Below are positions 4,063 through 58,812 of a DNA stretch of 64,000 nt, piece by piece. Location of the stretch: the IMG/VR virus record IMGVR_UViG_3300049929_000026, positions 32,001 to 96,000 of that record; one strand, 5' to 3'. This stretch comes from a virus. The number at the start of each line of letters is the position of its first letter. Position 1 is the first letter of the stretch. Below the pieces are notes generated by a model, which was not told where the DNA came from, made no database searches, and worked only from the letters and a program-made list of their open reading frames with translations. Position numbers and translations under genes: made by a program.

Positions 4063-4242
4063 TCAGGGCTGTTGGAAAGGCTTCTTCGGTAGCTTCGCGC
4101 CGCGCGCGGCCAGGCGGAGCAGCATTCGTCGATAGCCAAGAGAACAGGCGCGCCAATCCTTGACGAGCTGCGCCGCCTGTACCGCAAGGTCGTTGGACTC
4201 GGTTGGCCGCTCGTCGGGCGGGAATTGGCTTGGGGTCTTCAC
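4063..4242 (-). CDS. Hypothetical protein (59 aa, not in ORF track)
   Basis: GTGA overlap with sigma-factor stop; MKTPSQFPPDERPTESNDLAVQAAQLVKDW... Confidence 0.5.
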   Translation of the reverse strand: MKTPSQFPPDERPTESNDLAVQAAQLVKDWRACSLGYRRMLLRLAARGAKLPKKPFQQP

Positions 4243-4883
4243 GGCTTTTTAGCCTTCGCCTTGATGGCTCGCCAGTCGCGGGCCGCAAGCGTCCGAGCGG
4301 GGACCAGCCCAAGCGAGCACTGGAGCTTGCCGACAATACGCGCATAAATTTGGCTGATGCGCGCCTCCGACACGCCGAGGTCGCGGGCAACCTCCACAGT
4401 CGCGCGGCGCATCAAGCGAGCGAGTACGTCTCGCTCCCGCCGACGAAGCTTCGCGATGGCAGGCGCTACCAGCGCGAGCCGCTCTTTCATGAAGAGCTCT
4501 TGTTCCGAGGTCGGCTCGACTGAAAATTGCGCGAGCAGTTGCTGTTCCGTAGAATCCCCATGCCCGACGCCTTTGGTTGCGTCGATGCTCAAAAGTACAA
4601 CTTGCCCGAGGTTCTTCCGGGCCCGACGGGGCAGCGGGTCATGGGCGCGGATCTCGTCGAGGATTGCTCCCTTTATTCTGACCGAAGCAAACGCTTCGAA
4701 TTGCTCGGGCGGGAGCTTCGGCTGACTGAGCGCCGCTTGCCATAGACCGACGAGAGCGGCCGCCGACACTTCTTCGGGTAGGGTATTTCCGTGGAAGCGT
4801 CGGCGGTATTTGCGGGCGATACGTTCAGCGAGCGGGCGATGCCGGCCGAATGCCGCGAGAGCCGCGGCGTTGTGATTTTGCAA
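4239..4883 (-). CDS. Sigma-70 family RNA polymerase sigma factor, FliA/WhiG-like
   Basis: Region 2 LVGLWQAA...FEAFASVRIKGAILDEIR..DPLPR; region 4 EVARDLGVSEARISQI. Confidence 0.88.
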   Translation of the reverse strand: MQNHNAAALAAFGRHRPLAERIARKYRRRFHGNTLPEEVSAAALVGLWQAALSQPKLPPEQFEAFASVRIKGAILDEIRAHDPLPRRARKNLGQVVLLSIDATKGVGHGDSTEQQLLAQFSVEPTSEQELFMKERLALVAPAIAKLRRRERDVLARLMRRATVEVARDLGVSEARISQIYARIVGKLQCSLGLVPARTLAARDWRAIKAKAKKP

Positions 4884-5954: not shown

Positions 5955-6323
5955 CTAATAACATGAGATAAATCCGCAATGCTGCATCGCTTGCTTGCTT
6001 GTCGCGCCTACCATGCATGCCAGCGGCACGATGGTGAGCTGAGAGTCGAGCGTTCGCTGGACGATGTGCTCGCAGGTCTCGACCGGTTGAGCCTCCGAGC
6101 AACCGAGATTGTGGGCCTTCTCGCAGGCATCGAGCACGCTGCGATCGAAGTCTGGCTGCGGGCCCGCGTCCGCCACCGGAGCAGCGCCGCCCATCGCTAC
6201 GGGTGGCGGACCCGCGTCGGGGACGGTGACGGTTGGGACGGGAAGCGGAGTTGGCGCAGGCGCCGGAATGCACGAATTGCAGGCGACGAGCGCGAGGGCG
6301 GCGAATAGGTAGAGGTGTTTCAA
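5955..6323 (-). CDS. Cys-rich lipoprotein
   Basis: Signal peptide with lipobox LVAC, Pro-rich linker, Cys-rich C-terminus. Confidence 0.7.
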   Translation of the reverse strand: MKHLYLFAALALVACNSCIPAPAPTPLPVPTVTVPDAGPPPVAMGGAAPVADAGPQPDFDRSVLDACEKAHNLGCSEAQPVETCEHIVQRTLDSQLTIVPLACMVGATSKQAMQHCGFISCY

Positions 6324-7117
6324 GCGGCCAACTTTCGAACGCTCATGGCGTATTTATCCGAGCACTGGTTGACGAAATTGGCCGTGACCCAACAACGACC
6401 CCCGTCGCCCCATTGCGTAGTGCCCCATGAATTCTGCACGCGAAATTGCAGCGCGCCGTTCACGTGACGATAGCCGACCAGGAATAGGTAATGGCCTCCA
6501 CCGTTCGGATCGGTCTCGTCGGGCATGTCGTATGGCGCCGACTGCGGGCCAAGTTCTTCGAACGCTGTATCGACGAAGCTCGCGACAGTGACGGCGTATC
6601 CAGCCGCGAGCGCCTGAGCGGCCTCGGTCGCCGAGCTGATTTCGTACTGCCCAATAATGACAGCCGTCGAATCCTGCTCGAGCTCCGCGAGCTTCGGCTC
6701 GTCAGTGACGTTGCTCGGGTCGCAGTCGCTGTTGTAGCCCTCAGGCGACGGCGCGCGCATGGGGCGAATACCCCATTCGGTGAGGCCGCGCATCGCCTGG
6801 TTTGGCATCGAGCCAGCGTCCACGAGTGGCACGCTCGGATCCGGTCGGTCGATGCACAGTGCCAGCTGGTAGATGCTGTGCGGGCTCGGGGTGAAGCCGA
6901 GCGGCGCGCCGGCGCGCGCGAACGAAGTAGCGACCGCGCAGGCCGTGGCATGGCCAACGCAAGAGCTGGTCTGGTTTTGATCAAGCGGACCGGGAGCGAA
7001 TGGCGTCAGGTCAATCGAATCCGGGAGCGTCGCTGCTGCGCCGATCGCGTGCCGGAAACTCGTGACGCGATGCCCTGCCGGATCTGGGATATGGCCCTTG
7101 GAGAAGCGCCCGCTCAT
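6320..7117 (-). CDS. Papain-like (C1A) cysteine peptidase
   Basis: DQNQTSSCVGHA (Gln, Cys), GGGHYLFLVGY (His), QNSWG (Asn). Confidence 0.92.
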   Translation of the reverse strand: MSGRFSKGHIPDPAGHRVTSFRHAIGAAATLPDSIDLTPFAPGPLDQNQTSSCVGHATACAVATSFARAGAPLGFTPSPHSIYQLALCIDRPDPSVPLVDAGSMPNQAMRGLTEWGIRPMRAPSPEGYNSDCDPSNVTDEPKLAELEQDSTAVIIGQYEISSATEAAQALAAGYAVTVASFVDTAFEELGPQSAPYDMPDETDPNGGGHYLFLVGYRHVNGALQFRVQNSWGTTQWGDGGRCWVTANFVNQCSDKYAMSVRKLAA

Positions 7118-19044: not shown

Positions 19045-20670
19045 TCAAACCACCAACACCGCGTTGCAGACCTGGAAATTACTACCATCCCATTGAAACG
19101 AGTAGGTACGCTTGCAGCCTGGCGAGGCTGGCTTGGTGATCATATCTCCCGGCGAACCACCACCATTATGCATCGTATACGTGAACGCGCTTACGTCGAA
19201 GACCTCGACGAACACCACGTCGAACGGCCGCAATCCCGATCCAGCAACCATTGTCAGCACGGCGTTCGCTGTCTGCGTCGCCGCGGGCAGCGTGAACTTC
19301 ATCCCGGTGATGCCAGGGGCGATCGTTTGGTTCCCACCGGTGAGCAGCGATGGGCCAGGGATGACGTTGAAGGCGTCTACGCCGTTCGTGCCATTGGTTC
19401 CGTTCGTGCCGTTGGTGCCAGTCGCGATCTCGAAGTCGAGCGCGGTCGTATTGACGACGATCGCCCCCTCGGTCTTTAGCAGCGCGAGAGCTCCACCATT
19501 GGCTGTGCCCGCGACGATTGCTACGAACATCCCGGAGAAGAGGATATTTCCGGTGCGCGTCAGAACGAATGGCGTCGCGCCGCTGCCGATCGCAGTGACA
19601 ACGTACAAGCCATTGTTTGCACCAGTGGCCTCGTTTTTTACGAGGGTGATGTCGCTGAGCACTGCCGCGGTGCCATCCACGGTCAGTGCGCCATTGGCCG
19701 ATGCCGTGAGCACGCTGCCGGAACGAGTGTTCGTTGGCAGCGGCGCCGCGGTCGCGAGACGAGCCACCGGCGCCGAGCCAGCCATGGCGTCTGCGTAGCC
19801 CTTGGTGCAAGCGTCTGCGGCCGCGGTGGGCGTGGCCAGGTTCGTGAGCTTGTGACTGCCCATCGACTGATCACCCGTGAATGGGTTCGTGCCAGCCGGG
19901 ATGATCTGAGCGTCAACGTAGCCCTTCGTTGCCGCATCCGAGCTCACGGTCGGAACCGAGACGCTAGTGAGCTTGTGGGACCCCATCGATTGGTCCGCCG
20001 TGAAGGGTACCGTGCCGTTGGCTAGAACAGCGCCGCCCGGCGCCGCCACGATCGCGTCGACATAGGCCTTCGTTACGGCATCCGTGCTCGCCGTTGGCGT
20101 CGCTAGACTCGTGATCTTGTTACCGCCCGCCGACAAATTGCCGGTGAGCGCACGCGAGCCATCCGTGCGCAGATACTGCGGATGATCATCGGCGCTGAGT
20201 CCAGTCAGATTCGCGTGAACGGTTACTCCGCCACTGCCGGAGCCGGTCAGCGCCTTATTGAGTGGGACGGTCCAACCAAAGTTAGCATCGCGCTCGAGCT
20301 CTTCGCCCACAGCAAAAGGCACGATGCCCACCGAATTGGCAACGCCGACGAGCGCGGTCTTGGTCAGCGACGGATCGACCTGGCCAGCGGAATCCCGCCC
20401 GCCATTGATCACGCAGTTGATGATCATAGACACGCCGCGACCCGTGCCGGGATCCGCGACCATCGTAGCCGTAGCCGTGGCGCCCAATGGAGATCCGCCG
20501 AGCGTGATTGCTGGCGCGACGGTCGTCGGCGCATCGGTGCCCGCGAACGACCACGCGATCGTGTTCACGCCCGAGGTGCTGGTGAGCGCGAAAGTGAGCG
20601 CCGCGCCATAGGCCACCGCCTTCTCAGGCGGAGAGGCTGAGCCATTGATCGTAAAGTTGAGTGAAGGCAT
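19045..20670 (-). CDS. Tail fibre protein
   Basis: Repeated GSHKLT.L..PT...DAATKGYVD units; LVKNE....NNGLY motif; GTN triplets. Confidence 0.8.
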   Translation of the reverse strand: MPSLNFTINGSASPPEKAVAYGAALTFALTSTSGVNTIAWSFAGTDAPTTVAPAITLGGSPLGATATATMVADPGTGRGVSMIINCVINGGRDSAGQVDPSLTKTALVGVANSVGIVPFAVGEELERDANFGWTVPLNKALTGSGSGGVTVHANLTGLSADDHPQYLRTDGSRALTGNLSAGGNKITSLATPTASTDAVTKAYVDAIVAAPGGAVLANGTVPFTADQSMGSHKLTSVSVPTVSSDAATKGYVDAQIIPAGTNPFTGDQSMGSHKLTNLATPTAAADACTKGYADAMAGSAPVARLATAAPLPTNTRSGSVLTASANGALTVDGTAAVLSDITLVKNEATGANNGLYVVTAIGSGATPFVLTRTGNILFSGMFVAIVAGTANGGALALLKTEGAIVVNTTALDFEIATGTNGTNGTNGTNGVDAFNVIPGPSLLTGGNQTIAPGITGMKFTLPAATQTANAVLTMVAGSGLRPFDVVFVEVFDVSAFTYTMHNGGGSPGDMITKPASPGCKRTYSFQWDGSNFQVCNAVLVV

Positions 20671-27524: not shown

Positions 27525-28157
27525 CTAGCCGCCCACGAACACGCCTGCTGCCGGCGCCGAAGCGCCCGGTGCCCCGATTACGGGAGCAGGCCCGAACTGC
27601 ACCGGACCGAGCGGTGTGCGGCCACCGAGAATGACCTGACCGGTCAGGATGCACATCCCATCCTTGACTTGGATCATGCCGCCGCCGTGCGCCATGTAGC
27701 ATCCGCTATCCTGGCTGATTTCGAAATGGCCACCGAAGCAGGAGATGGTGATCTTCTTGTTCTTCTCGTCGACCACGATGGCCATGCTGTCGCCGACGAT
27801 GATGGATGCGCTCTTGTCTTTGAGGAACACGCGCGAATCGAAATCGGGACCAGTCGAGTGCAGGCAGGTTTCCCCGGCGCCGAGCTCAGCGGTGACCGAA
27901 GCGGTGCGCGTGTCGCGACCAGTGATGACGACGCCACCGCTAGTGCCGGGGACGTTAACCTTGATTCCTTGCGCGTGCCCGTTGTCGTTGCTCGGGTATG
28001 GGAACGCTGTGACACCGAGAGCCCCCATCATCGGCGCGTCACCAATGTCGGGCGCGTCGTTCGGATCTTCGCCGACCCGCGTCGTCTTCGCCTGAACAAG
28101 CAGCACGTTTGTTTTCGGGTCGAGCCTTGCGCTCCCTATATCGATGAATTCCGTCAT
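27525..28157 (-). CDS. Baseplate spike protein (Mu gp45-like)
   Basis: LG....P, GRDTR and LGAGET.LHS motifs; follows the hub gene; start MTEFID. Confidence 0.7.
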   Translation of the reverse strand: MTEFIDIGSARLDPKTNVLLVQAKTTRVGEDPNDAPDIGDAPMMGALGVTAFPYPSNDNGHAQGIKVNVPGTSGGVVITGRDTRTASVTAELGAGETCLHSTGPDFDSRVFLKDKSASIIVGDSMAIVVDEKNKKITISCFGGHFEISQDSGCYMAHGGGMIQVKDGMCILTGQVILGGRTPLGPVQFGPAPVIGAPGASAPAAGVFVGG

Positions 28158-40737: not shown

Positions 40738-40822
40738 GGTTCAACCTTTCGTTCCCGCGGCGCGCGGGTACGTTCTGTGTTCGGAGTTGGCGCCGCGGTC
40801 ACTTGACAACGCGCGGCAGTGA

Positions 40823-47530: not shown

Positions 47531-47935
47531 TCACGTCCCAGTTGCGTCTCGATCAAGCTCCGCCATCTGGGCTATGAATGTGGCGGTAAGCTTCTGTTTC
47601 TGTTCGAGAATCCGAATGCGTGAACCATGGTCATTCACTCGGCGGCGGAGGTCCTTGCATTCCAGGCCGATTTCGATCGTGTTCTTCTCCAGGTCGTCGA
47701 TCGCTTTGAGCGTCTCTTGTGGCAACAGATCCTCCAGTGCGCGCTTGCTCACGTAGAGGGCGCGCCCCACGCGCTTAGCGTAAGTGGTGGCGTTCCTGCG
47801 CTCAAGCGACCGTAGGAGGCGGTAGACGTACTTGCGGCGCGTCGCGCGCGTCATGCTGGCGAGCTTCGGGTGGCTGGGCTCGAGGATTTTGGCGAGCTCC
47901 ACGAGCAGGAACCATCGGTCGCGGCGGGGCCTCAC
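47531..47935 (-). CDS. Hypothetical basic/coiled-coil protein, paralog A
   Basis: MRPRRDRW...ERR...Y.KR.G...V; GTGA overlap with HNH stop. Confidence 0.65.
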   Translation of the reverse strand: MRPRRDRWFLLVELAKILEPSHPKLASMTRATRRKYVYRLLRSLERRNATTYAKRVGRALYVSKRALEDLLPQETLKAIDDLEKNTIEIGLECKDLRRRVNDHGSRIRILEQKQKLTATFIAQMAELDRDATGT

Positions 47936-48444
47936 GGGTCGAGTCCTGGCAACGGGATATCGCCGCGCGCTTCGAGCCATCGGCGGCGGATATCCACCTC
48001 ACTCAGATCGGGGCGCCGGGCCAGCCAACGCGGGAGCGTCAGGTCGGTCTTGTTGCTATTGCAGGGCTGGCAGGCCGGAGCGAGATTCCCCTCATCGTGT
48101 CGACCGCCGCGCACGAAGGCGACGATGTGGTCGAGCACGAGCAGATCGGCCCGTGTTCCACAATACAAGCAGGAGTAGCCGTGAAGGCGTTCAAGACGCC
48201 AGCGCAGTCCGACTGGGTGAGGCGAGCGACGGGCCGCGATTGCGCTAAGCGGCTGCCGCAGTGATTCCGTGATCGTCAGGTCCTCATCCGGCGCCTGGCC
48301 CCACCGGCCGAATGCACGTTCCTTGGCCAGCCGAAGCGCTCCCAAGCCACCACCATCCGCATCCAAGCTCGACTCGAAAATTAGACGCTTGAAAGCCTCC
48401 TCGAACCGCTCCCCGTCATAGGCGGTACCGCGTCGGCGCGTCAC
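47932..48444 (-). CDS. HNH endonuclease (Zn-binding HNHc)
   Basis: CLYCG..LDHIVAFVRGG....NLAPACQPCNSNK. Confidence 0.9.
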   Translation of the reverse strand: MTRRRGTAYDGERFEEAFKRLIFESSLDADGGGLGALRLAKERAFGRWGQAPDEDLTITESLRQPLSAIAARRSPHPVGLRWRLERLHGYSCLYCGTRADLLVLDHIVAFVRGGRHDEGNLAPACQPCNSNKTDLTLPRWLARRPDLSEVDIRRRWLEARGDIPLPGLDP

Positions 48445-50646: not shown

Positions 50647-50919
50647 TCAACTGCTAAGCAAACTCTCCTGCTCAGCGGCCCGCAGTTGTCTGAGCTGCGC
50701 TTCGATCCGCTGAGAATCCACGGTTGGGACGCCGTCGCGCGCCCAAATGCTCCAGATCCTCTCTGCTTGGCAGAGGCTCTCGCTGTCGCCGGTCGCAGCC
50801 ATTACGCAGCACCTATCGATGACCCAGAGCACGTCGTTCGGCTCTAACCCGCCTATGTCAGAATCAGTGCCAGCTTGCGACATTGTCTTCAGAAACATCC
50901 CGCGGATCCTTTCCGTCAT
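50647..50919 (-). CDS. Hypothetical protein
   Basis: 90 aa; starts 31 nt after the degenerate repeat. Confidence 0.45.
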   Translation of the reverse strand: MTERIRGMFLKTMSQAGTDSDIGGLEPNDVLWVIDRCCVMAATGDSESLCQAERIWSIWARDGVPTVDSQRIEAQLRQLRAAEQESLLSS

Positions 50920-50950: not shown

Positions 50951-50986
50951 CTCTCAACACCTGACTCTTTTTCTCTTCGTCAGCGG
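50951..50986 (-). CRISPR. Isolated degenerate CRISPR repeat
   Basis: 50951-50966 is identical to the last 16 nt of the repeat (AGTCAGGTGTTGAGAG); upstream AGAGAAAA partly conserved. Confidence 0.65.
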
Positions 50987-51057
50987 TGGTCACGTGACAA
51001 CACGTTACACTGCCTTGCGGCGGTTTGCCACTGTGAGGCGCTGGCGAGCGCCACAAA

Positions 51058-51633
51058 TCAAGCGGCTTTTGCTTTTCCAACCTGCTTCTGCAGCCGGGCG
51101 TTCTCCCGCTTCAGCGCCGTCACCTCCTTCGTGAGCGCCGCCACCTCGGTCTTTAGCCGGGCATTTTCCAGCTCTAAGCTGCCCTGCCGCTGGACGGCCC
51201 GGGTTGACGGAGCCAATGGGGCTTTCTTCTCGATCACGCCGTTGACGATACGTCGCACCTCCTTGGGGCTCGGCGCGCAGTGGTTTGCGTTGATGAACTG
51301 ATCGAGCGACGCCTCGACGAGCTGAACATTCGCCGTGTCAGCGGTGGCGCCTGGCGCCAGAAGGGCATGGCAAGACTCCACTCCAAGCGCCCGCACGCGA
51401 TCCACGCCGTAGATCTCGATCGCCTGGATCACGTTCCCATAACGGTTGAGCCCCATCGCGTTTGGGAACTCCCGCTGCAGGAAGTCACTGAACATCGGCG
51501 TCTCTGGCGTCTTCCAGATGCCCTGCGTCTCTACTGCTCGAAGCTCGAGGAAGAGATCAACTCCGCTCTCCAGCCAGTTAGCTAGGAGCGTACGGATTTT
51601 GGATACGGCTTGTTCATATGCTTGATTGCTCAT
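51058..51633 (-). CDS. Putative DNA-binding protein with C-terminal coiled coil, located between CRISPR repeats
   Basis: LELRAVETQGIWK....FSDFLQREF resembles DUF3102/partition-type helical domains; zipper LELENARLKTEVAALTKEVTALKRENARL; GGAG RBS. Confidence 0.7.
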   Translation of the reverse strand: MSNQAYEQAVSKIRTLLANWLESGVDLFLELRAVETQGIWKTPETPMFSDFLQREFPNAMGLNRYGNVIQAIEIYGVDRVRALGVESCHALLAPGATADTANVQLVEASLDQFINANHCAPSPKEVRRIVNGVIEKKAPLAPSTRAVQRQGSLELENARLKTEVAALTKEVTALKRENARLQKQVGKAKAA

Positions 51634-51643
51634 TTTAACTCCA

Positions 51644-51750
51644 CTCTCAACACCTGACTTTTCTCTGATCCGTTCCGAGAGCTGGATTCGCACAGCTGAG
51701 GACGGGTGCCCAACCTCTCAACACCTGACTTCTCTCTGATCCGTTCCGAG
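51644..51750 (-). CRISPR. Minimal CRISPR array: two 36-nt repeats, one 35-nt spacer
   Basis: CTCGGAACGGATCAGAGARAAGTCAGGTGTTGAGAG at 51715-51750 and 51644-51679 (1 mismatch); spacer GTTGGGCACCCGTCCTCAGCTGTGCGAATCCAGCT; 54 nt after the cas stop. Confidence 0.85.
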
Positions 51751-51804
51751 CGGTCATCAAGACCGCCAGCAAATTCGCGCTCTTGCCGTCCGCTTTGCGA
51801 GCGG

Positions 51805-53430
51805 TCACTCCGCGGCCCCTGCTTCTGGGGCCAGAGAATCCGAACCGCTCGCAGTCTTGACGCCCTTCTTCCCGAGTCCGCGCTTCTTCGCGCCGGCCTC
51901 CTGCATCTTCGCTAGCGCGTGTTTCTTGCCCACATCGAGTAGATGATTCGCGCATGCGATACCATCCACCGATGCCTTCAATTGGCATTGCTCGCAACGA
52001 AACCAGGCCGGCACTCGCACAACCCGTTTCCAGACCTCGCCGTCGATGCGTTTGAACTCAACGACGTTGTCGCGGTGCTCAACGTTCGCTTCCGATGTGT
52101 GCGAGCAAGCCGGACATCGCTGCGAGACGAAGCGCGCGTTCTTGTAGTGCGTCCGGATCCCCACCTTGGTGAGCGCCCGATCGATCGTCTGCTGGCTTTC
52201 GTAGTAAGGCCACTGATGGATCAGTCGCTTCAGCTCGCTGTGGGCCTGTCCCTCGGTCTGCTTCTCGAAGTTCTCCCGGATCCCGGTCATGTTCTCCATA
52301 AACACGTCGCTAACTCCATGAAGCGTGCACCAGCGAGCGAAGTCCGCCGCGCGCTGCCGGATCCGGTCCTTGACTCGCCGCGCTTCTCGATCGCCGATGG
52401 CAGTCAGCGGGAGTTCGCGACGCTTCACGCCGCGTCCGCGGGACCCGCTGCCATGGGCACGCATTCCCTTTGCGATGCGGCGTCTCTGCGCGGCATATTG
52501 CTCACGCATCGCGATGATGTCAGTCCCCGGATCTTCCCACGTTGTGCCGTCCTCGGACATCGCCAGCATGAACACGTTGATCCCGAAGTTGCAGGCTACC
52601 GCATTGCCTGCCTTGTAGCCTTCGGCTCGGTGCTGAGACCACGAGATGAGCGCGAACCATTTACGCTTTCGCTCGTCGAACTTGATCCCGACCTTTCCAA
52701 GCTTGATCGACGCCTTCTCTTCGAGTTCGAACAGAGCTCGGTCCCTAGCCGCGCGCGCTGCCTTCATTACCTTGTCAGTGGCGTCTTTCGGGAGCGGTTT
52801 CTTGGCGGATCGCTCGAGCTCCACCACGCCTGCTCGGTTGCCCGCTCCACCCACCAGTTGCCTCCAAAGAACCACGGCGTTGCCGCCGCAAGGTGCAACA
52901 ACGAGAGACGTTGCACCTTTGCCGGTGCCAAAGAAAGGGAAGGTGAGCCGGGCATCGTCAGGTGTCCCTGAGACTTCGCAGTTGCGTCCCTCCGAGAAGA
53001 AGGACTTGCCGGACCCTTCGAACGTCGGCACGCCCGCGCGACCAGCCAGCAGATCCTTGAGATGCTGCCCAGCGAAGCGCGAAAGTATGTGGTCCGAGGT
53101 TTCGCTACACAGAACGTCCCCGGGCGGGACGTGAGCCGCTGCGTAGTCTTTGCCTGACTTCTTCAGCATGTACGCGCATCGTCGCTCCATGCCGCGAGCC
53201 CAATGGAATCGCAGCCGCTTACGGACATCGTTCTGCCAGGTCGTGCTTGGTTTCTGCTTCTCCGATATCGCCTCGAGTTGGGAAATGGCGCCAGGGTATA
53301 CGTCACGTAGCGAGAGATTCAGCGCCATCGGCAGTGTCTCGCGAAGGGCTCGCATTCGCGCTCCGAGTTCGCTCCAGCTACCATTTGCTGGCTTGACGAT
53401 CTCAACCTTGAGCGTCCCTGCCAGCTTCAT
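51805..53430 (-). CDS. cas12f: Cas12f1/TnpB-like RNA-guided protein, RuvC-I Asp replaced by Asn
   Basis: ACNFG (N281), GSGSRGRGVKRRELPL, FMENMTGIR (E379), QWPYYESQQTI, SQRCPAC..FRCEQC, VDGIACAN (D489); GGAGG RBS. Confidence 0.85.
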   Translation of the reverse strand: MKLAGTLKVEIVKPANGSWSELGARMRALRETLPMALNLSLRDVYPGAISQLEAISEKQKPSTTWQNDVRKRLRFHWARGMERRCAYMLKKSGKDYAAAHVPPGDVLCSETSDHILSRFAGQHLKDLLAGRAGVPTFEGSGKSFFSEGRNCEVSGTPDDARLTFPFFGTGKGATSLVVAPCGGNAVVLWRQLVGGAGNRAGVVELERSAKKPLPKDATDKVMKAARAARDRALFELEEKASIKLGKVGIKFDERKRKWFALISWSQHRAEGYKAGNAVACNFGINVFMLAMSEDGTTWEDPGTDIIAMREQYAAQRRRIAKGMRAHGSGSRGRGVKRRELPLTAIGDREARRVKDRIRQRAADFARWCTLHGVSDVFMENMTGIRENFEKQTEGQAHSELKRLIHQWPYYESQQTIDRALTKVGIRTHYKNARFVSQRCPACSHTSEANVEHRDNVVEFKRIDGEVWKRVVRVPAWFRCEQCQLKASVDGIACANHLLDVGKKHALAKMQEAGAKKRGLGKKGVKTASGSDSLAPEAGAAE

Positions 53431-53443
53431 TGAAAATCCTCCA

Positions 53444-53595
53444 AGTGATTCAAGGCAACCATCGACCGGCTAGTCAGGTGTTGACCATGCGACAAGCGCG
53501 TGGTCCTGCGGCCGAAGCCACTCAGCGAGTACGAAGACTCGCTATCTCGACGGTAGATCGCCGGTATTACCGGTCGTTGGCTGCCTTCAATCACT
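53444..53595 (-). ncRNA. Putative tracrRNA
   Basis: 13-nt anti-repeat TCAACACCTGACT (53472-53484); 26-bp closing stem 53444-53469/53570-53595 with a G-U pair on the minus strand; internal hairpin AGCGAGT..ACTCGCT. Confidence 0.75.
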
Positions 53596-53934
53596 GTTCC
53601 AAAATAGAACCGACTCATGTAGACCTGCTCCTGTCCGTTTACGCGGACCATGCCCGCGGTCGTGTGATAGCGACGCGCGGGCAACTTCAATCGCACCCCC
53701 CGGGCTGGCTGTCAAGTGACCACCAAAGCCCGGCGCCTCTCGTTCCTGCTTGTCGCTACTGACGTGATTCCAGTGATTACGCGTCTTTGCGGCGTCCCGG
53801 TCGCTCTCCGGGCGCCCCGGAGTTGCCTGGGCGCAATGTTCGCTTTAGCCTAAACAACAGGTCCAAGCACGTCGGCGCAAGCCGAAGGACGCCTCCGCCA
53901 CGGGGTAACGCTGCCTAGCCCGGTAGGGCACGCA

Positions 53935-54513
53935 ATGTTCAACTTAGACAAATTCGCCAATGCGGTGCTGCTCGTGTTGAACGAGAGTCCGTCGCCGCCT
54001 GGGTTGACGGTGCTTCTGAAGGTGCTGTTTCGGTCGGACTTCGCACACTATCAGGAGCATTTGCGTTCGATCACCGGAGTGGAGTACGTGGCACTCGAGC
54101 GCGGACCTGTTCCCCACGACTACCGCTCGCTTCTTCAGAAGCTAGCAAGCCGGGGCGACGTTGTGGCCGAACGTGTCGACGTTGCCTCGGGCTACAAGCC
54201 CATGGAGTGCTACCGCGCGCTCCGCCGTCCGGATCTCGCGGCCTTCGATCCGAGCGAACTTGCGGTGCTACGCGCGGTCATTGCGGCGGACGCGGGCAAA
54301 ACGGGAAAGCAGCTGAGCGACGAGACACATGCCGAACTCCCTTGGCGGGCTGTCTGGCGCGACGGGGAAGGCGAATCCGCCCAGATCCCCTATGCCCTCT
54401 CTCGCTGGGAAGAGAACCGTTGCAATGCGGCGGACCTCACTCAAGCCGCAAACGAGCTGCAGCGAACCGATGTGCAGGCGGTGATTGCGCAACTTGTTCG
54501 ACCAACTGGCTAG
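53935..54513 (+). CDS. Panacea-domain (DUF4065/SocA-like) antitoxin
   Basis: LLKVLFRSDFAHY......ITG.EY.AL.RGPVP, LSDETH...PW and IPY motifs. Confidence 0.85.
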   Translation: MFNLDKFANAVLLVLNESPSPPGLTVLLKVLFRSDFAHYQEHLRSITGVEYVALERGPVPHDYRSLLQKLASRGDVVAERVDVASGYKPMECYRALRRPDLAAFDPSELAVLRAVIAADAGKTGKQLSDETHAELPWRAVWRDGEGESAQIPYALSRWEENRCNAADLTQAANELQRTDVQAVIAQLVRPTG

Positions 54514-55004: not shown

Positions 55005-55238
55005 ATGCTAGCTTCAGGATTCCTATTAATCGTGTTCGGATTCTTCTGCCTGATCTTCATGACGATCGAAAAGGTCGGCAGGAACGCTAGACGTCGCCTG
55101 ATGCTTGCCGAGCACGAGCGGCGGAAGGCAATGCTCTATCTGGAACATGGCCGACAAGTCCGTGCCTTGTACGAGAGCCACCGAAAGCGCGCGCCGGAAA
55201 AGTTCCACGCTCCGCCATATGACGTGGAAGAATCATGA
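55005..55238 (+). CDS. Small membrane-anchored hypothetical protein
   Basis: N-terminal TM; AGAAGGA RBS. Confidence 0.5.
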   Translation: MLASGFLLIVFGFFCLIFMTIEKVGRNARRRLMLAEHERRKAMLYLEHGRQVRALYESHRKRAPEKFHAPPYDVEES

Positions 55239-55394: not shown

Positions 55395-55964
55395 TCACGT
55401 GACCACCTTGATCCCGTTCGTCGCCGCTTGCGATCTGTCTATCGGCAGCCGCCCATGGCACGAGTTTTCTCCGGGCCTTGGGAAGTTCAACGCCGCAAAC
55501 TCGCCGAAATACTCGCGAGCCGCCGCGTCGTATGCCCGGGCAGCGTCCTCCTCATCCGTGAAGTACCCAAGGTGTTTTGGGACGTGTGTTTTCTGGTAGT
55601 ACTGGCCGCCAGAGATCATGGCTCGCCATTTCTTGCCGCGCTTGTACCAAGCAACACCTTTGAATCTAGACGTGCCAGTTGTACGAGCGCGCATATTGAA
55701 GTGATTTTTGGCAGTCGTCGTCGCTCGCAGATTTGTGCGGCGATTATTCAGCCCATCGCCGTCTCGGTGATCTACCTCCTCTGCGTCGGACAGGATCACT
55801 CGATGCATTAGCAACAGCTTCTGTTCACCGTTTTCGCAATGAAGCCTGCGGGCGTACCAAGTGTTCCGATGCTGCCAAGCGTGCCAAGTCTTTCCCGCAA
55901 AGAGGTGCGCGTCAGCCTCGTCTACGATCGCCTTCATTCCGTTGCTAAGAATGATCTCCGTCAT
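55395..55964 (-). CDS. HNH endonuclease with AP2 domain
   Basis: VDHRDGDGLNNRRTNLR; SRFKGV..HLGYFTDEEDAARAYD. Confidence 0.92.
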   Translation of the reverse strand: MTEIILSNGMKAIVDEADAHLFAGKTWHAWQHRNTWYARRLHCENGEQKLLLMHRVILSDAEEVDHRDGDGLNNRRTNLRATTTAKNHFNMRARTTGTSRFKGVAWYKRGKKWRAMISGGQYYQKTHVPKHLGYFTDEEDAARAYDAAAREYFGEFAALNFPRPGENSCHGRLPIDRSQAATNGIKVVT

Positions 55965-55973
55965 GAATTGTTA

Positions 55974-56002
55974 GTATACGACAGCGGTGGTCAACTGACC
56001 AC
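55974..56002 (-). promoter_or_regulatory. Promoter overlapping a palindrome copy
   Basis: TGGTCA-N17-TATACT about 10 nt before the HNH ATG. Confidence 0.5.
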
Positions 56003-58812
56003 TAAGCGGACCGACGAATCGACTTCTTGTCGAGGTATGCCTGCGCGATTTTCTTCATTCGGTCCAGGTCGACTTCTTGAGGCAGATCGTTGCCGACTTT
56101 CAGATCTCGTACGCCTTCAAGCTGCGCGCGCTTGATTCCCAAAATGTCGCTGATCACCGGATCGGATCCCTCGTCGGCGAGTAGGAAATAGGAGAACACG
56201 GGAAGCAGCTGGCCATCGCGGTGAATCCTGGTGTCGTTCTGCTCATGGATCCCAGGGCTATAGTCGAGCTCAGCGGACACGACGTTATTGCAGACGTGCT
56301 GAAGCCCGTCGAGCCCCTCACCGGAACGCAGGCTCATGATCAGGATCTTGGTTTCGCCTGCGATAAAGCGCCGCTTGGACTCCTCCTTCTCTTTGACCGA
56401 TTCGAGTCCCGTGTAGAAAGCGGGAGCGAAGTCCTTCAGCTTATCGCGCAGCACGTCATACACGGCGTGATGCCACGCGAAGCACACAACTGACTCGCCG
56501 CCCTCCACCAGCATCCTCAGGAACTCCGCCACATACGGCGCCTTCGCCAGCCCCGTAGATTGGCGCAACAGATTGTCGAGCTTGCCTGCGGCCTGCATGC
56601 GCGCACCCTTCGACATCTCACCCTTCGCGAGAATCGTGCGCGCCAAAGCCGTGGCTTGACCATCGACAGCATCGAGCACCTTTTGATCGAAATCGATGTA
56701 GTGCGGGATCCGCGTAAGCGCGGGCAACTGACGTCCGACGTCTTCCTTCGTGCGCCGAATCATCAATCCGGAATCGCGCAGGTACGAGCCCATCGCCTCA
56801 GGTGATTTGAGTTTCAGTTTGCCGGGCTTGTCGGCGTCTCCGGTGCAGTGCTCCTGCTTGAATTCGCTGAGCAGTCCGAGCGCGCCAGGGCGAATGAATT
56901 CCATCACGTTCCAGAGCTCGCCGCCGAGATTTAGAAATGGAGTTCCGGAGAGGCCGATTCGGAACTGAACCCGGCGGGATATTTTCATCGCGGCCTTGCC
57001 CTTATTGGTGTCCTCGCCATTTCTAAATTCGTGAACCTCGTCATAGACGACGCTCCCTAACTTCACGAGTTGTGCCTGTCCGGCGAGCTTTTCGTTTCCA
57101 GAGAGATAGTCGCCCCATCCTGGGATCTTCGAATAGCTCGTGATGATCACATCAGGCAGAACGCCGCCGCATTGTTTCGCGATGTCATATGGACGCGTTC
57201 CTCTCAAAATGTGCGTCGACATGCGCGGCAAGAACTTGCGAAGCTCCGCTTGCCACTGCGATGGCAGGGCAGTCTTCGTCACCACGAGCGCGGGGCGTGT
57301 TCGCGGGTCGGTCAAAGCACAGGCGGCAGAGATCGTGTTGTGCGTCGCGAGATACCCGTCTGTCAGATATAGATGACGTTTTGAGCTGACCCGGATACAT
57401 TGGACTGGTTTAATCCCCGCAGGTTCGACTGTTTTGATAGCGCGGGCCATCAACGGCATACGCCATCGCTCAGCCTTGCGTTTGAGAGCGAATGGGCAAA
57501 TCGGTATACGGATATGTACCGTATATGAGAGACGCCCCTGACGGCGCTCCCCAAGATGTTCGTAATTAGTGTGTCGGCTGTACAACGACGCGAACCCACC
57601 TAATGTACCAACAAGATCTTGTACGCCCTCCGCCAATGGCAAAGAGGTCGATGTGAACGTGACGGTACCGCTCGTTCCACATGTGCCATCCGTGTCCATC
57701 AGCCCCTTGAGTAGAGCCAAACGATCGCTCACTGCGGCGCACAGGTACTCATGCGGGATAGTCTTTTCCCACGAGCGCTTCCCAGCCAGCCCTAACGCGC
57801 GCAACGCTTCTATCAGCGCGTTTTTTTGTCCACCGCGATTCCCGCTGGTAATGTTGTAGTCGAAATTGGACCCGCAAACGGGATGTAGCCATAGCCCGGG
57901 CGGAAGCGCAGATATCACATGATCAAGAATTTCTTGATCAGCAGATGATATTGCAACTCCTGCCTGCTTTAGATGCCCATCTCCCAAGAGAACCCCGAGC
58001 AGATACGCTGGTATCGGCAATGGGGGCGCCGGGGCAAACGTGACCGGCTTGGATATTGGCAGGAAGTACTTCGAGTTGACCCTCCCTTTGCCCATGTCGG
58101 TATTCAAGGACTTGCGGATCTCTGAGAGCGGCAATGTCCTGCTCTTACCGGTATATCGGTCTTGCGCAGTGTGGACGGTCCATAGATGCTCATCGCAGCA
58201 TTCTGCGGATGCTCCGTCGGCTGTTGTAACACGAAACACGGGGCGATCTCCTTGTGGAAATATCGCTTCGACGAATGCCGTGCCGCCGTCCGGATCGCTG
58301 ATTTCATCGCCCACGGCGAGCTCGCCCATTTTCCTCCAACCATATGGAGTGAGAACCACTGCGTCTAATGGCTGAGCCTTGCCCAGGCCCATCTGGTCGC
58401 CGATGAGCACCCCACCTGTCCGCAGCGCGAGCTCCGCTGCCACCTTCTGGTAGTCGCGTGGCGGCAACGCGAGTTTGAATTCTTGCGGTTTACGCGCTGG
58501 GTCCCCGATAATTTGGTGGACCGCAAATTCCGCTTCGCGGTGTTCATTCGCGCGTCGCGCAAGCCGGATCTCGCTCTCCTTATCGACGTAGTCGAACGGG
58601 AACCGTGATTGAAACCACTCGATGTCCCGTGACACCTCAGGCGTGTCCATGATGCAGATGATCTCGCGCGTCTTTCCCGCTTGGTATCGCGGCTTCGACA
58701 TTCGCGGGAACACGCGACGCATGCGCAATAACACGTGTGGATCGCACTCAATGATCCAAGAACCATGGTGGTACTTTAGCGTCCCGTAGGTTTTGATCTC
58801 TTCTTTGCTCAC
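56002..58812 (-). CDS. SNF2-family helicase with intein
   Basis: GDQMGLGK/T split by the intein, VYDEVH, LSGTP, GEGLDGLQ, RIHRDGQ. Confidence 0.93.
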   Translation of the reverse strand: MSKEEIKTYGTLKYHHGSWIIECDPHVLLRMRRVFPRMSKPRYQAGKTREIICIMDTPEVSRDIEWFQSRFPFDYVDKESEIRLARRANEHREAEFAVHQIIGDPARKPQEFKLALPPRDYQKVAAELALRTGGVLIGDQMGLGKAQPLDAVVLTPYGWRKMGELAVGDEISDPDGGTAFVEAIFPQGDRPVFRVTTADGASAECCDEHLWTVHTAQDRYTGKSRTLPLSEIRKSLNTDMGKGRVNSKYFLPISKPVTFAPAPPLPIPAYLLGVLLGDGHLKQAGVAISSADQEILDHVISALPPGLWLHPVCGSNFDYNITSGNRGGQKNALIEALRALGLAGKRSWEKTIPHEYLCAAVSDRLALLKGLMDTDGTCGTSGTVTFTSTSLPLAEGVQDLVGTLGGFASLYSRHTNYEHLGERRQGRLSYTVHIRIPICPFALKRKAERWRMPLMARAIKTVEPAGIKPVQCIRVSSKRHLYLTDGYLATHNTISAACALTDPRTRPALVVTKTALPSQWQAELRKFLPRMSTHILRGTRPYDIAKQCGGVLPDVIITSYSKIPGWGDYLSGNEKLAGQAQLVKLGSVVYDEVHEFRNGEDTNKGKAAMKISRRVQFRIGLSGTPFLNLGGELWNVMEFIRPGALGLLSEFKQEHCTGDADKPGKLKLKSPEAMGSYLRDSGLMIRRTKEDVGRQLPALTRIPHYIDFDQKVLDAVDGQATALARTILAKGEMSKGARMQAAGKLDNLLRQSTGLAKAPYVAEFLRMLVEGGESVVCFAWHHAVYDVLRDKLKDFAPAFYTGLESVKEKEESKRRFIAGETKILIMSLRSGEGLDGLQHVCNNVVSAELDYSPGIHEQNDTRIHRDGQLLPVFSYFLLADEGSDPVISDILGIKRAQLEGVRDLKVGNDLPQEVDLDRMKKIAQAYLDKKSIRRSA
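57337..58377 (-). mobile_element. Class 3-type intein (347 aa) with LAGLIDADG endonuclease
   Basis: Starts Ala (AQPLD), ends THN/T; HLW, VQCIRV and THN give the W-C-T triad; LLGVLLGDG and LLKGLMDTDG. Confidence 0.9.

Follow-up and report, generated by a model that had tools for sequence, protein, structure and literature searches.

What would a phage do with a CRISPR effector whose nuclease site lacks a catalytic residue? This question is raised by a locus in IMG/VR virus record IMGVR_UViG_3300049929_000026 (137,618 bp, estimated completeness 86%), in which a Cas12f-like gene lies with a structured RNA, a small CRISPR array and a partner gene. We analyzed bases 32001–96000 of this record, a stretch of 64,000 nt referred to here as the window; coordinates are those of its plus strand, and all parts of the module read on the minus strand. 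Judged from its sequence, the module, carried by a large soil phage, is a CRISPR system derived from Cas12f1 that comprises a trans-activating CRISPR RNA (tracrRNA), an effector substituted at RuvC-I and a conserved partner protein. With some reserve, we favour the reading that it is an RNA-guided DNA binder rather than a cutter.

A Cas12f-like effector with a substituted RuvC site

The effector gene (51805..53430, minus strand) is an intact open reading frame (ORF) encoding 541 residues, located where the initial annotation of this DNA had placed a Cas12f-like, probably nuclease-dead protein. The Cas12f1 motifs cited in that annotation are present: a Gly/Arg-rich stretch, FMENMTGIRE, WPYYESQQTI and SQRCPAC align to the matching motifs of AsCas12f. 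PADLOC matched the protein to Cas12u3 (E = 1.2e-21, residues 6–454) and Cas12f (1.5e-20), and the best solved relatives were AsCas12f and other Cas12f1 proteins, in agreement with the annotated identity. More specifically, a single-sequence search of solved structures returned AsCas12f at 1e-9. A profile of 26 family proteins, searched against the PDB, returned AsCas12f at 9.1e-30, other Cas12f1 proteins at 2e-25 to 1e-21, Un1Cas12f at 1.7e-15, a TnpB at 1.7e-14 and dCas12f (9n9c) at 4.1e-11; none of the 28 PDB sequences matched by this profile at E ≤ 1 was named Cas12m. Matches to curated families fell below their cut-offs: 24.2 bits versus 26.3 for Pfam Cas12f1-like_TNB (PF07282), 22.9 bits versus 30.5 for Pfam OrfB_IS605 and 77 versus 100 for NCBIfam guided_TnpB.

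In the alignment with AsCas12f, CNFG of the query lies opposite IDLG, in a column that Ala occupies in two entries of D-to-A mutants (7wju and 8dzj). Similarly, FMENMTG lies opposite QMEDLTN and SVDGIACAN opposite NADYNAARN. According to these alignments, the RuvC triad is N281-E379-D489. Among 50 family sequences, the triads were NED (39), HED (3), HPD (2), RED (1), others (4) and partial (1). The RuvC-I position was Asn in 40 of these sequences, His in 5, Val in 2, Arg in 1, Ile in 1 and missing in 1, such that Asp occurred in 0 of 49. Both CxxC pairs of the zinc finger (C439, C442, C479 and C482) are kept and are invariant in the family. From Asn281 and the absence of Asp at this position we infer the loss of cleavage that the initial annotation had suggested, in a site that keeps the RuvC-II Glu and the RuvC-III Asp.

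Beyond the family stands a next tier of 48 proteins that match in the C-terminal half only. Their triads were likewise HED, NED or RED, with a single DED (1/48). The RuvC-I Asp is lost in 47 of the 48 (P0052–P0099; motifs AVHRG or AINRG), and the Glu and Asp are kept. These proteins, too, are nearest to AsCas12f, and the PDB matches of two of them included no chain named Cas12m. The tier as a whole represents a far larger group of proteins related to Cas12f whose site is non-canonical.

Conservation of the module in related loci

A word-indexed search identified 26 full-length Cas12 relatives with 34–76% identity to the window protein. An exhaustive profile search of 1.84 billion representatives identified 32 full-length family clusters (50% identity) at E ≤ 1e-84, past which the score falls sharply to ~205 bits, the level of matches confined to the C-terminal half. 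GenBank phages contained one distant Cas12 relative (25.6% identity) and no partner homologs. We obtained 12 family loci from viral, genome and metagenome collections. Three pairs among them (L001/L017, L015/L016 and L018/L019) are duplicates, leaving nine distinct relatives. All nine show the same module, and the conservation of layout for which the initial annotation had proposed a check is thus observed.

The arrays of the relatives are composed of 36-nt repeats and spacers of 34–39 nt. They comprise 12 repeats in L003, 11 in L013 and six in L008; L016 and L009 carry several blocks. The 43 ORFs flanking eight of the related loci included no gene for Cas1, Cas2, Cas4, a Y1 transposase or a sigma factor. 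Neighbours that could be named were Mom, DnaB, an integrase, DUF3310, NAD synthase, a kinase and an exonuclease, of which Mom, DnaB, the integrase and DUF3310 are phage-like.

The tracrRNA-like scaffold and its anti-repeat

A structured RNA (53455..53583, minus strand) precedes cas12 on the same strand. It contains a 13-nt anti-repeat (53472..53484, minus strand), 41 nt upstream of the cas12 ATG, that is the exact complement of repeat positions 21–33. The corresponding 13-mer, AGTCAGGTGTTGA, occurs at four sites in the window when one mismatch is allowed, versus a chance expectation of 0.06, and none of 100 shuffles reached four. Three of these sites are on the minus strand, within repeats; the fourth, on the plus strand at 53472–53484, is the anti-repeat.

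The anti-repeat co-varies with the repeat of its own locus. In five loci (the window, L008, L013, L016 and L009), a 12–13-nt stretch upstream of cas12 exactly complements the same segment of the local repeat, the anti-repeats TCAACACCTGACT, AAACACCTGACC, GAACACCTGACG, CAACACCATTCC and CAATTCCATTCC each matching the repeat of their own locus. The repeat segment varies across loci from GTCAGGTGTT to GAATGGTGTT to GAATGGAATT, and the pairing stretch follows each change. An ungapped search found no anti-repeat in L001, L003, L014 or L019. Three helices are predicted in the conserved scaffold of ~130 nt; among them are a hairpin of 7 bp that is invariant (AGCGAGK...MCTCGCT) and a closing stem that spans a long range. 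According to RNAalifold, run on the five loci, 21 pairs are formed, 11 of them with compensatory changes. Pairing was possible in 90.3% of cells versus 75.9% in shuffles, and none of 500 shuffles matched the observed values. In a control in which the partner columns were slid, 0–3 compensatory pairs remained.

The structured RNA and its exact anti-repeat are thus located as annotated, with covariation across five loci. The presence of repeats and a matching anti-repeat in homologous loci had been named beforehand as the test of the tracrRNA claim; the homologous loci carry both, and the claim therefore stands. A covariance model built from the five loci scored the window at 90.8 bits, a value that holds by construction because the window is one of the five training sequences. 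The model found no new full-length scaffold beyond the training loci and one duplicate contig. Its partial matches were to the hairpin only and were repeated within L018/L019 and L002. An Rfam scan matched no family, and no tRNAs were found.

Repeated units of ~60 nt occur at L019:3726-3941 and 6029-6850 (= L018) and at L002:3671-3712. Each joins a tracrRNA-type hairpin (GGCGAGG...CCTCGCC) to the 3′ end of the repeat (CGTCAACGGGTGCAAG). By sequence, these units look like an array of natural single-guide RNAs, a parallel to the route proposed for the guides of dCas12f-sigmaE.

The partner protein

The partner gene (51058..51633, minus strand) encodes 191 residues from an ATG preceded at 7 nt by GGAG; the ORF list gives it as 211 residues from an upstream GTG. 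As annotated, it lies between the second repeat and the half repeat described below. According to tblastn, a partner homolog of 31–57% identity is directly downstream of cas12 in 10 of the 10 loci for which downstream DNA is available, corresponding to nine of nine distinct elements. What had been called an accessory gene is thus a conserved partner, and it is the only neighbour of the window's module that is common to the relatives. The position of the array relative to the partner gene varies among them, being either before or after it. The partner has 14 homologs in 5.8 billion clusters, versus 27 counted for cas12, a similar rarity.

Pfam, NCBIfam, PADLOC and PHROG yielded no family for the partner beyond coiled-coil noise, and no helix-turn-helix (HTH) domain of Pfam was matched. 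A sequence profile of the partner searched against the PDB likewise returned only coiled-coil noise. Longer proteins included no fused form of the partner, which is weak evidence. AlphaFold2 models were confident, with a pLDDT of 88 for the whole partner and 87 for the N-terminal domain alone (residues 1–140). The model comprises a nine-helix domain (residues 1–135) followed by one long helix (residues 142–190) predicted to form a leucine-zipper-like coiled coil. The N-terminal domain weakly matched Caulobacter ParB (6s6h; Z = 6.9, RMSD 4.6, 115 residues aligned) and KorB (1r71; Z = 6.0, RMSD 3.2, 109 residues aligned), with further weak matches to Spo0J (1vz0; Z = 6.0–6.2) and SopB (Z = 5.6). 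In the ESM Atlas, a cluster containing HTH_ParB was found at a TM-score of 0.50, and DUF3102/Plasmid_parti_N clusters were found at 0.91–0.92.

The partner is probably a dimeric DNA-binding protein, an assignment that we make from these models with low confidence. Three results speak against it. The Rubisco factor Raf1 ties with the ParB matches (Z = 6.8). All fold matches of the partner have Z < 8, a range deemed uninformative for helical proteins. Finally, Foldseek returned nothing at E ≤ 0.001 for either partner model.

At the C-terminus (window 51805–51822), Ala-Ala-Glu is found in 14 Cas12 proteins out of the 50 of the family, the ten closest among them, and the partner ends in AAE, KAA or PAA in four of nine loci. 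These endings may represent a motif common to both proteins or may reflect chance.

Repeats, spacer and half repeat

The array of the window consists of repeat 1 (51715..51750), a single 35-nt spacer (51680..51714) and repeat 2 (51644..51679), all on the minus strand. The two 36-nt repeats are identical at 35 of 36 positions, and repeat 2 ends 10 nt before the ATG of the partner gene. The initial annotation had listed these elements together with a third, degenerate repeat. All of them were found in place, the third copy being exact only at its 16–17-nt 3′ end. Over the full 36 nt (50951–50986), this copy is 67% identical to the repeat. We refer to it as a half repeat (50951..50966, minus strand) because the exact 16–17-nt match is confined to the 3′ end of the repeat (AGTCAGGTGTTGAGAG), the portion that pairs with the anti-repeat. 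A 90-aa ORF (50647–50919) has its ATG 31 nt downstream of the half repeat. The 15-nt core of the repeat is absent elsewhere in the phage record. The half repeat is probably a minimised form of a second array that relatives have downstream of the partner gene, because L016, L009, L003, L001 and L019 carry arrays or half-repeat units after that gene.

Runs of half repeats occur in relatives at L013:3600-3760, L016:4723-4840 and L008:2830-2845, where only the 15–19 nt that pair with the anti-repeat are present. The intervals between them are short, about 18–31 nt, and those of L013 are placed between the tracrRNA and cas12. Additional small repeat-spacer units occur at 27960-28064 and 19942-20371 of the viral contig of 84.6 kb that carries L003 (G001), at a distance of 4–12 kb from its main array, and one unit contains a copy of a main-array spacer.

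The phage and the surroundings of the module

PHROG matches identified genes for tail sheath, baseplate, tape measure, major head, portal, large terminase and helicase in the virus contig, nearly all of them on the minus strand. The module is thus phage-borne, with sheath, baseplate, portal, major head and terminase genes in the same record. An identical phage sequence (100% identity) is present in contigs of a second soil study. Two soil-metagenome DNA runs contain the same sequence with zero variants; the array has no cover in the second run. The initial annotation had noted the absence of cas1, cas2 and TnpA from the window. Searches bore this out for the whole virus record, which encodes no Cas1, Cas2 or Y1 TnpA; Cas4 and Tn7 were not covered by a profile search. 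Without adaptation genes of its own, the module would have to rely on host enzymes for any acquisition of new spacers.

A 16-bp palindrome, GTGGTCA-NN-TGACCAC, occurs in 26 copies (≤2 mismatches) in the 137.6-kb record, versus 0.7 in first-order Markov simulations. One copy lies at the upstream edge of the module (53708..53723), where the minus strand reads GGTGGTCACTTGACA, and a second lies at its downstream edge (50986..51001); the two bracket the module. The palindrome containing TTGACA had been counted as part of the CRISPR system. It is present at 53708, but it lies outside that system because its 26 copies are spread over the phage record. Copies occur at window positions 40795, 47153, 49735, 50986, 53708, 55391, 55987 and 60099 and at 18 further sites of the record; those inspected are intergenic. 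A consensus scan found no sigma-70 promoter at 53708–53723 or in the module, and terminator-like sites were at chance level. The palindrome is probably either an operator, bound by a dimeric regulator of the phage, or an element associated with promoters.

Directly upstream of the module, on the opposite strand, is a gene for a SocA/Panacea-domain, antitoxin-like protein (53935–54513, plus strand; Pfam 50.9 bits, E = 3.5e-13). It is followed, 490 nt downstream, by an ORF of 77 residues (55005–55238) whose N-terminal part includes a hydrophobic stretch. The phage encodes a 214-aa sigma-70-family factor with regions 2 and 4 (4239–4883, minus strand), 47 kb from cas12. This gene is the sole Sigma70_r2 match of the record, and no such match lies near cas12 in any relative examined. 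A 936-aa helicase gene (56002–58812, minus strand) matches helicase profiles at residues 490–906 only. Over residues ~120–490 it matches regions of terminase and primase families that bear inteins or homing endonucleases, which points to an inserted intein. Near the helicase gene, HNH endonucleases are encoded by two free-standing genes (47932–48444 and 55395–55964).

Proposed function and alternative explanations

In the mechanism that we propose, the tracrRNA encoded just upstream of cas12 would use its anti-repeat of 13 nt to pair with the 3′ portion of every repeat, and the resulting dual guide would load onto the 541-aa Cas12f-like protein. The complex would then bind double-stranded DNA that matches the spacer and is flanked by a protospacer-adjacent motif (PAM). 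Binding without cutting is most likely, as the RuvC-I Asp is never present in the family. The bound complex would block transcription or replication at the target, as for Cas12m, with rival phages or other mobile elements as the likely targets. The partner, with its ParB/KorB-like helical domain and leucine zipper, would be a probable dimeric DNA-binding co-factor that aids the effector or controls the locus. In the window phage, the arrays would have been reduced to one repeat-spacer-repeat unit and one half repeat.

With respect to targets, a single case points to phage genes. In a 10.4-Mb metagenome-assembled genome (MAG), the first spacer of the L008 array agrees at 32 of 36 nt (E = 2.3e-6) with a site on a different contig of the same MAG (G002:C137:5549-5584 = L029:1501-1536). 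The ORF that contains this protospacer encodes 931 residues and has a phage tail-adaptor (Gp77) domain; the target would be a rival phage or else a diverged copy. This case apart, the spacers of the relatives, compared with the window phage and all retrieved loci, gave only matches to themselves or to duplicate contigs. The L013 array had no match in GenBank phages. A spacer of L009 has a weak 21/22 match to another contig of its own MAG.

Several observations weigh against a silencer that acts by binding. At the L008 protospacer, the four mismatches are all PAM-proximal, and this protospacer might lie in the same phage as the array. The spacer of the window has no target in the phage record, IMG/VR (exact match) or GenBank phages, and it has no second site within the window. 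The single-spacer array could mean that the system is in decay. The sequencing runs that contain the region are two soil DNA runs, with no RNA run among them. Finally, the RuvC-II Glu is kept in 44 of 50 family sequences and the RuvC-III Asp in 49 of 50. Full relaxation of a dead site predicts otherwise, and this conservation thus implies that the pocket may keep a role. That role may be RNA processing, metal or strand binding, or residual cleavage.

A more elaborate form of the binding mechanism, which we put forward tentatively and consider doubtful, is a two-protein silencer. In this form, the dead Cas12f would target a site and the dimeric partner would occupy or bridge the neighbouring DNA, silencing a rival phage or a host locus. 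The half-repeat handles behind promoter-type motifs would dock phage transcripts on the tracrRNA-Cas12f complex and so couple guide supply or message control to phage transcription.

The alternative that survives best, unlikely as we judge it, is that the module is a regulator. The guides would steer the dead effector to phage or host promoters, in the manner of TldR or of array-linked dCas12f. The half repeat and the last repeat would place a CRISPR RNA (crRNA) handle on the 5′ ends of the partner mRNA and of the mRNA of the 90-aa ORF and would control both. The layout of the window fits this proposal in several respects: one spacer and one half repeat resemble regulatory mini-arrays, repeat 2 ends 10 nt before the partner ATG and covers the region of its ribosome-binding site, and the half repeat comes after a copy of the phage-wide palindrome and before a gene. 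The half-repeat runs of L013 and L016 are also consistent with it, and an array-linked dCas12f with guides matching efflux promoters is reported in the text of PMC13472631. However, the three candidate guides have no match in the phage record beyond a 17/20 site, which we rejected as a target: 16 of 400 shuffled 20-mers score as well, so the site is due to chance. Moreover, the distance from the last handle to the partner start varies (10, 44, 46 and 68 nt in four loci), and the arrays of the relatives are long and diverse.

It is quite improbable, in our estimation, that the effector is still a nuclease in which Asn281 is tolerated or compensated and which cuts rival DNA like an ordinary Cas12f. 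The conservation of Glu379 and Asp489 and the intact zinc finger would be expected of such an enzyme, and the arrays of the relatives resemble those of immune systems. It has also been argued that many TnpB groups with replaced catalytic residues stay active (PMC10691335, in its general account of these groups). Against this, the RuvC-I residue is Asn, His, Arg, Val or Ile and in no case Asp, a variety that gives no hint of a substitute with equivalent chemistry. Only one of the 48 next-tier proteins has DED. Further, Cas12m2 restored to DED stayed without cleavage, as stated in PMC10442227, which indicates that changes in the triad accompany a deeper loss.

We regard as very improbable the possibility that the module is a decaying, functionless remnant of a larger system in the window phage. 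Such a remnant could account for the single spacer and for the reduction of the third repeat to 16–17 nt. However, both ORFs are intact, the repeats differ at one of 36 positions, the 13-nt anti-repeat has no mismatch, the RNA scaffold retains all of its helices and the identical phage sequence recurs in the contigs of the second soil study. An anti-CRISPR decoy, in which the dead effector and tracrRNA sequester the crRNAs of a host type V-F system, as proposed in PMC11656645 for a phage Cas9 with an inactivated RuvC and its own tracrRNA, is extremely improbable in our view, given that relatives keep arrays of up to 12 repeats and that anti-repeats track their own repeats.

Relation to known systems

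The best sequence relatives of the family are V-F1 Cas12f1 proteins of the AsCas12f group (PDB 8j12, 7wju, 8dzj, 9i8y and 9nzq; profile E = 9e-30). The family shares with them a miniature size, a zinc-finger TNB domain, a 3′ guide and a tracrRNA with an anti-repeat complementary to the 3′ portion of a 36-nt repeat. By contrast, it replaces the RuvC-I Asp, such that D-E-D is not intact, and it has a conserved partner, no adaptation genes and a phage carrier. Its N-terminal half is larger by ~100 residues, a 12-residue insertion follows RuvC-II and the query scores below curated Pfam and NCBIfam cut-offs. The module is not a strict V-F1 member, nor is it a sigma-linked dCas12f, a TldR or a TnpB.

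The closest description in the literature is that of V-U24, a catalogued, unstudied CRISPR-associated group of TnpB/Cas12 proteins (Altae-Tran et al. 2023, PNAS, PMC10691335). The same paper describes large Cas12f branches with altered sites. The family has the trait given there for V-U24, a noncanonical RuvC-I site in a CRISPR-associated TnpB/Cas12 branch, and appears to fit its one-line description, compared by description only. That line mentions no tracrRNA, phage context or partner fold (PMC10691335). As the next tier also has His, Asn or Arg at RuvC-I, V-U24 may be a neighbouring clade. A literature search found V-U24 named in no other paper, no functional work on a dCas12f from a phage that has an HTH partner, and no description of the family beyond the one sentence on V-U24, a group of matching description. 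The initial annotation had regarded the architecture as unlike the families it knew; V-U24 tempers this view as far as a comparison of descriptions allows.

Cas12m2 has a non-canonical triad and silences by binding without cutting, and Cas12m clades include NED (Omura et al. 2023, as outlined in PMC10442227). The family shares with Cas12m, in the accounts of PMC10442227 and PMC11656645, the non-canonical RuvC triad, the lack of adaptation genes and carriage by mobile elements. It differs in its tracrRNA and its partner: the text of the Cas12m2 structure paper does not contain the word tracrRNA (PMC10442227) and describes no conserved partner.

One nuclease-dead Cas12f derivative that works with a conserved protein partner is dCas12f-sigmaE (Hoffmann et al., Nature 2026, PMC13472631; PDB 9n9c); that report mentions in passing a separate cluster of array-linked dCas12f. 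The evolution of dCas12f-sigmaE is traced there to half repeats and a fusion with the tracrRNA (PMC13472631), and the units of L018/L019 and L002 are similar. As characterized in PMC13472631, dCas12f-sigmaE is C-terminally truncated, uses a single chimeric guide with no tracrRNA and occurs in an rpoE operon in Bacteroidota. The window protein, by contrast, keeps its C-terminus, zinc finger and RuvC-III and has a dual guide and a partner without sigma domains. Chimeric-looking units are confined to the L018/L019 and L002 branch, and the profile matches 9n9c at only 4e-11.

Like TldR as generally described, the family is phage-borne and would be a nuclease-dead, RNA-guided DNA binder. Unlike TldR, which is described as derived from TnpB and as using a single omega-type guide RNA, it has CRISPR arrays and a separate tracrRNA; TldR is not known to have either an array or a tracrRNA. 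We rejected a TnpB transposon (IS200/IS605): the record encodes no Y1 transposase, the repeat core occurs at one locus and CRISPR arrays replace the 3′ omega RNA. Two further proteins, Cas12r from Thermus Lalka phages and a myxophage's 'Cas12m', were rejected as counterparts, both having an intact Asp and no tracrRNA.

Each of the natural RNA-guided binders that do not cut (Cas12k, Cas12m, TldR and dCas12f-sigmaE) gave a new use of guides. The family described here is small (~32 clusters), compact (~540 residues and a scaffold of ~130 nt), phage-carried and strictly tied to an unstudied partner. If the partner is a recruited DNA-binding effector, the module would represent a new natural mechanism of programmable silencing as well as a compact tool. 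If the enzyme still cuts, it would have a working RuvC site without the first aspartate. Either outcome bears on conflict between phages.

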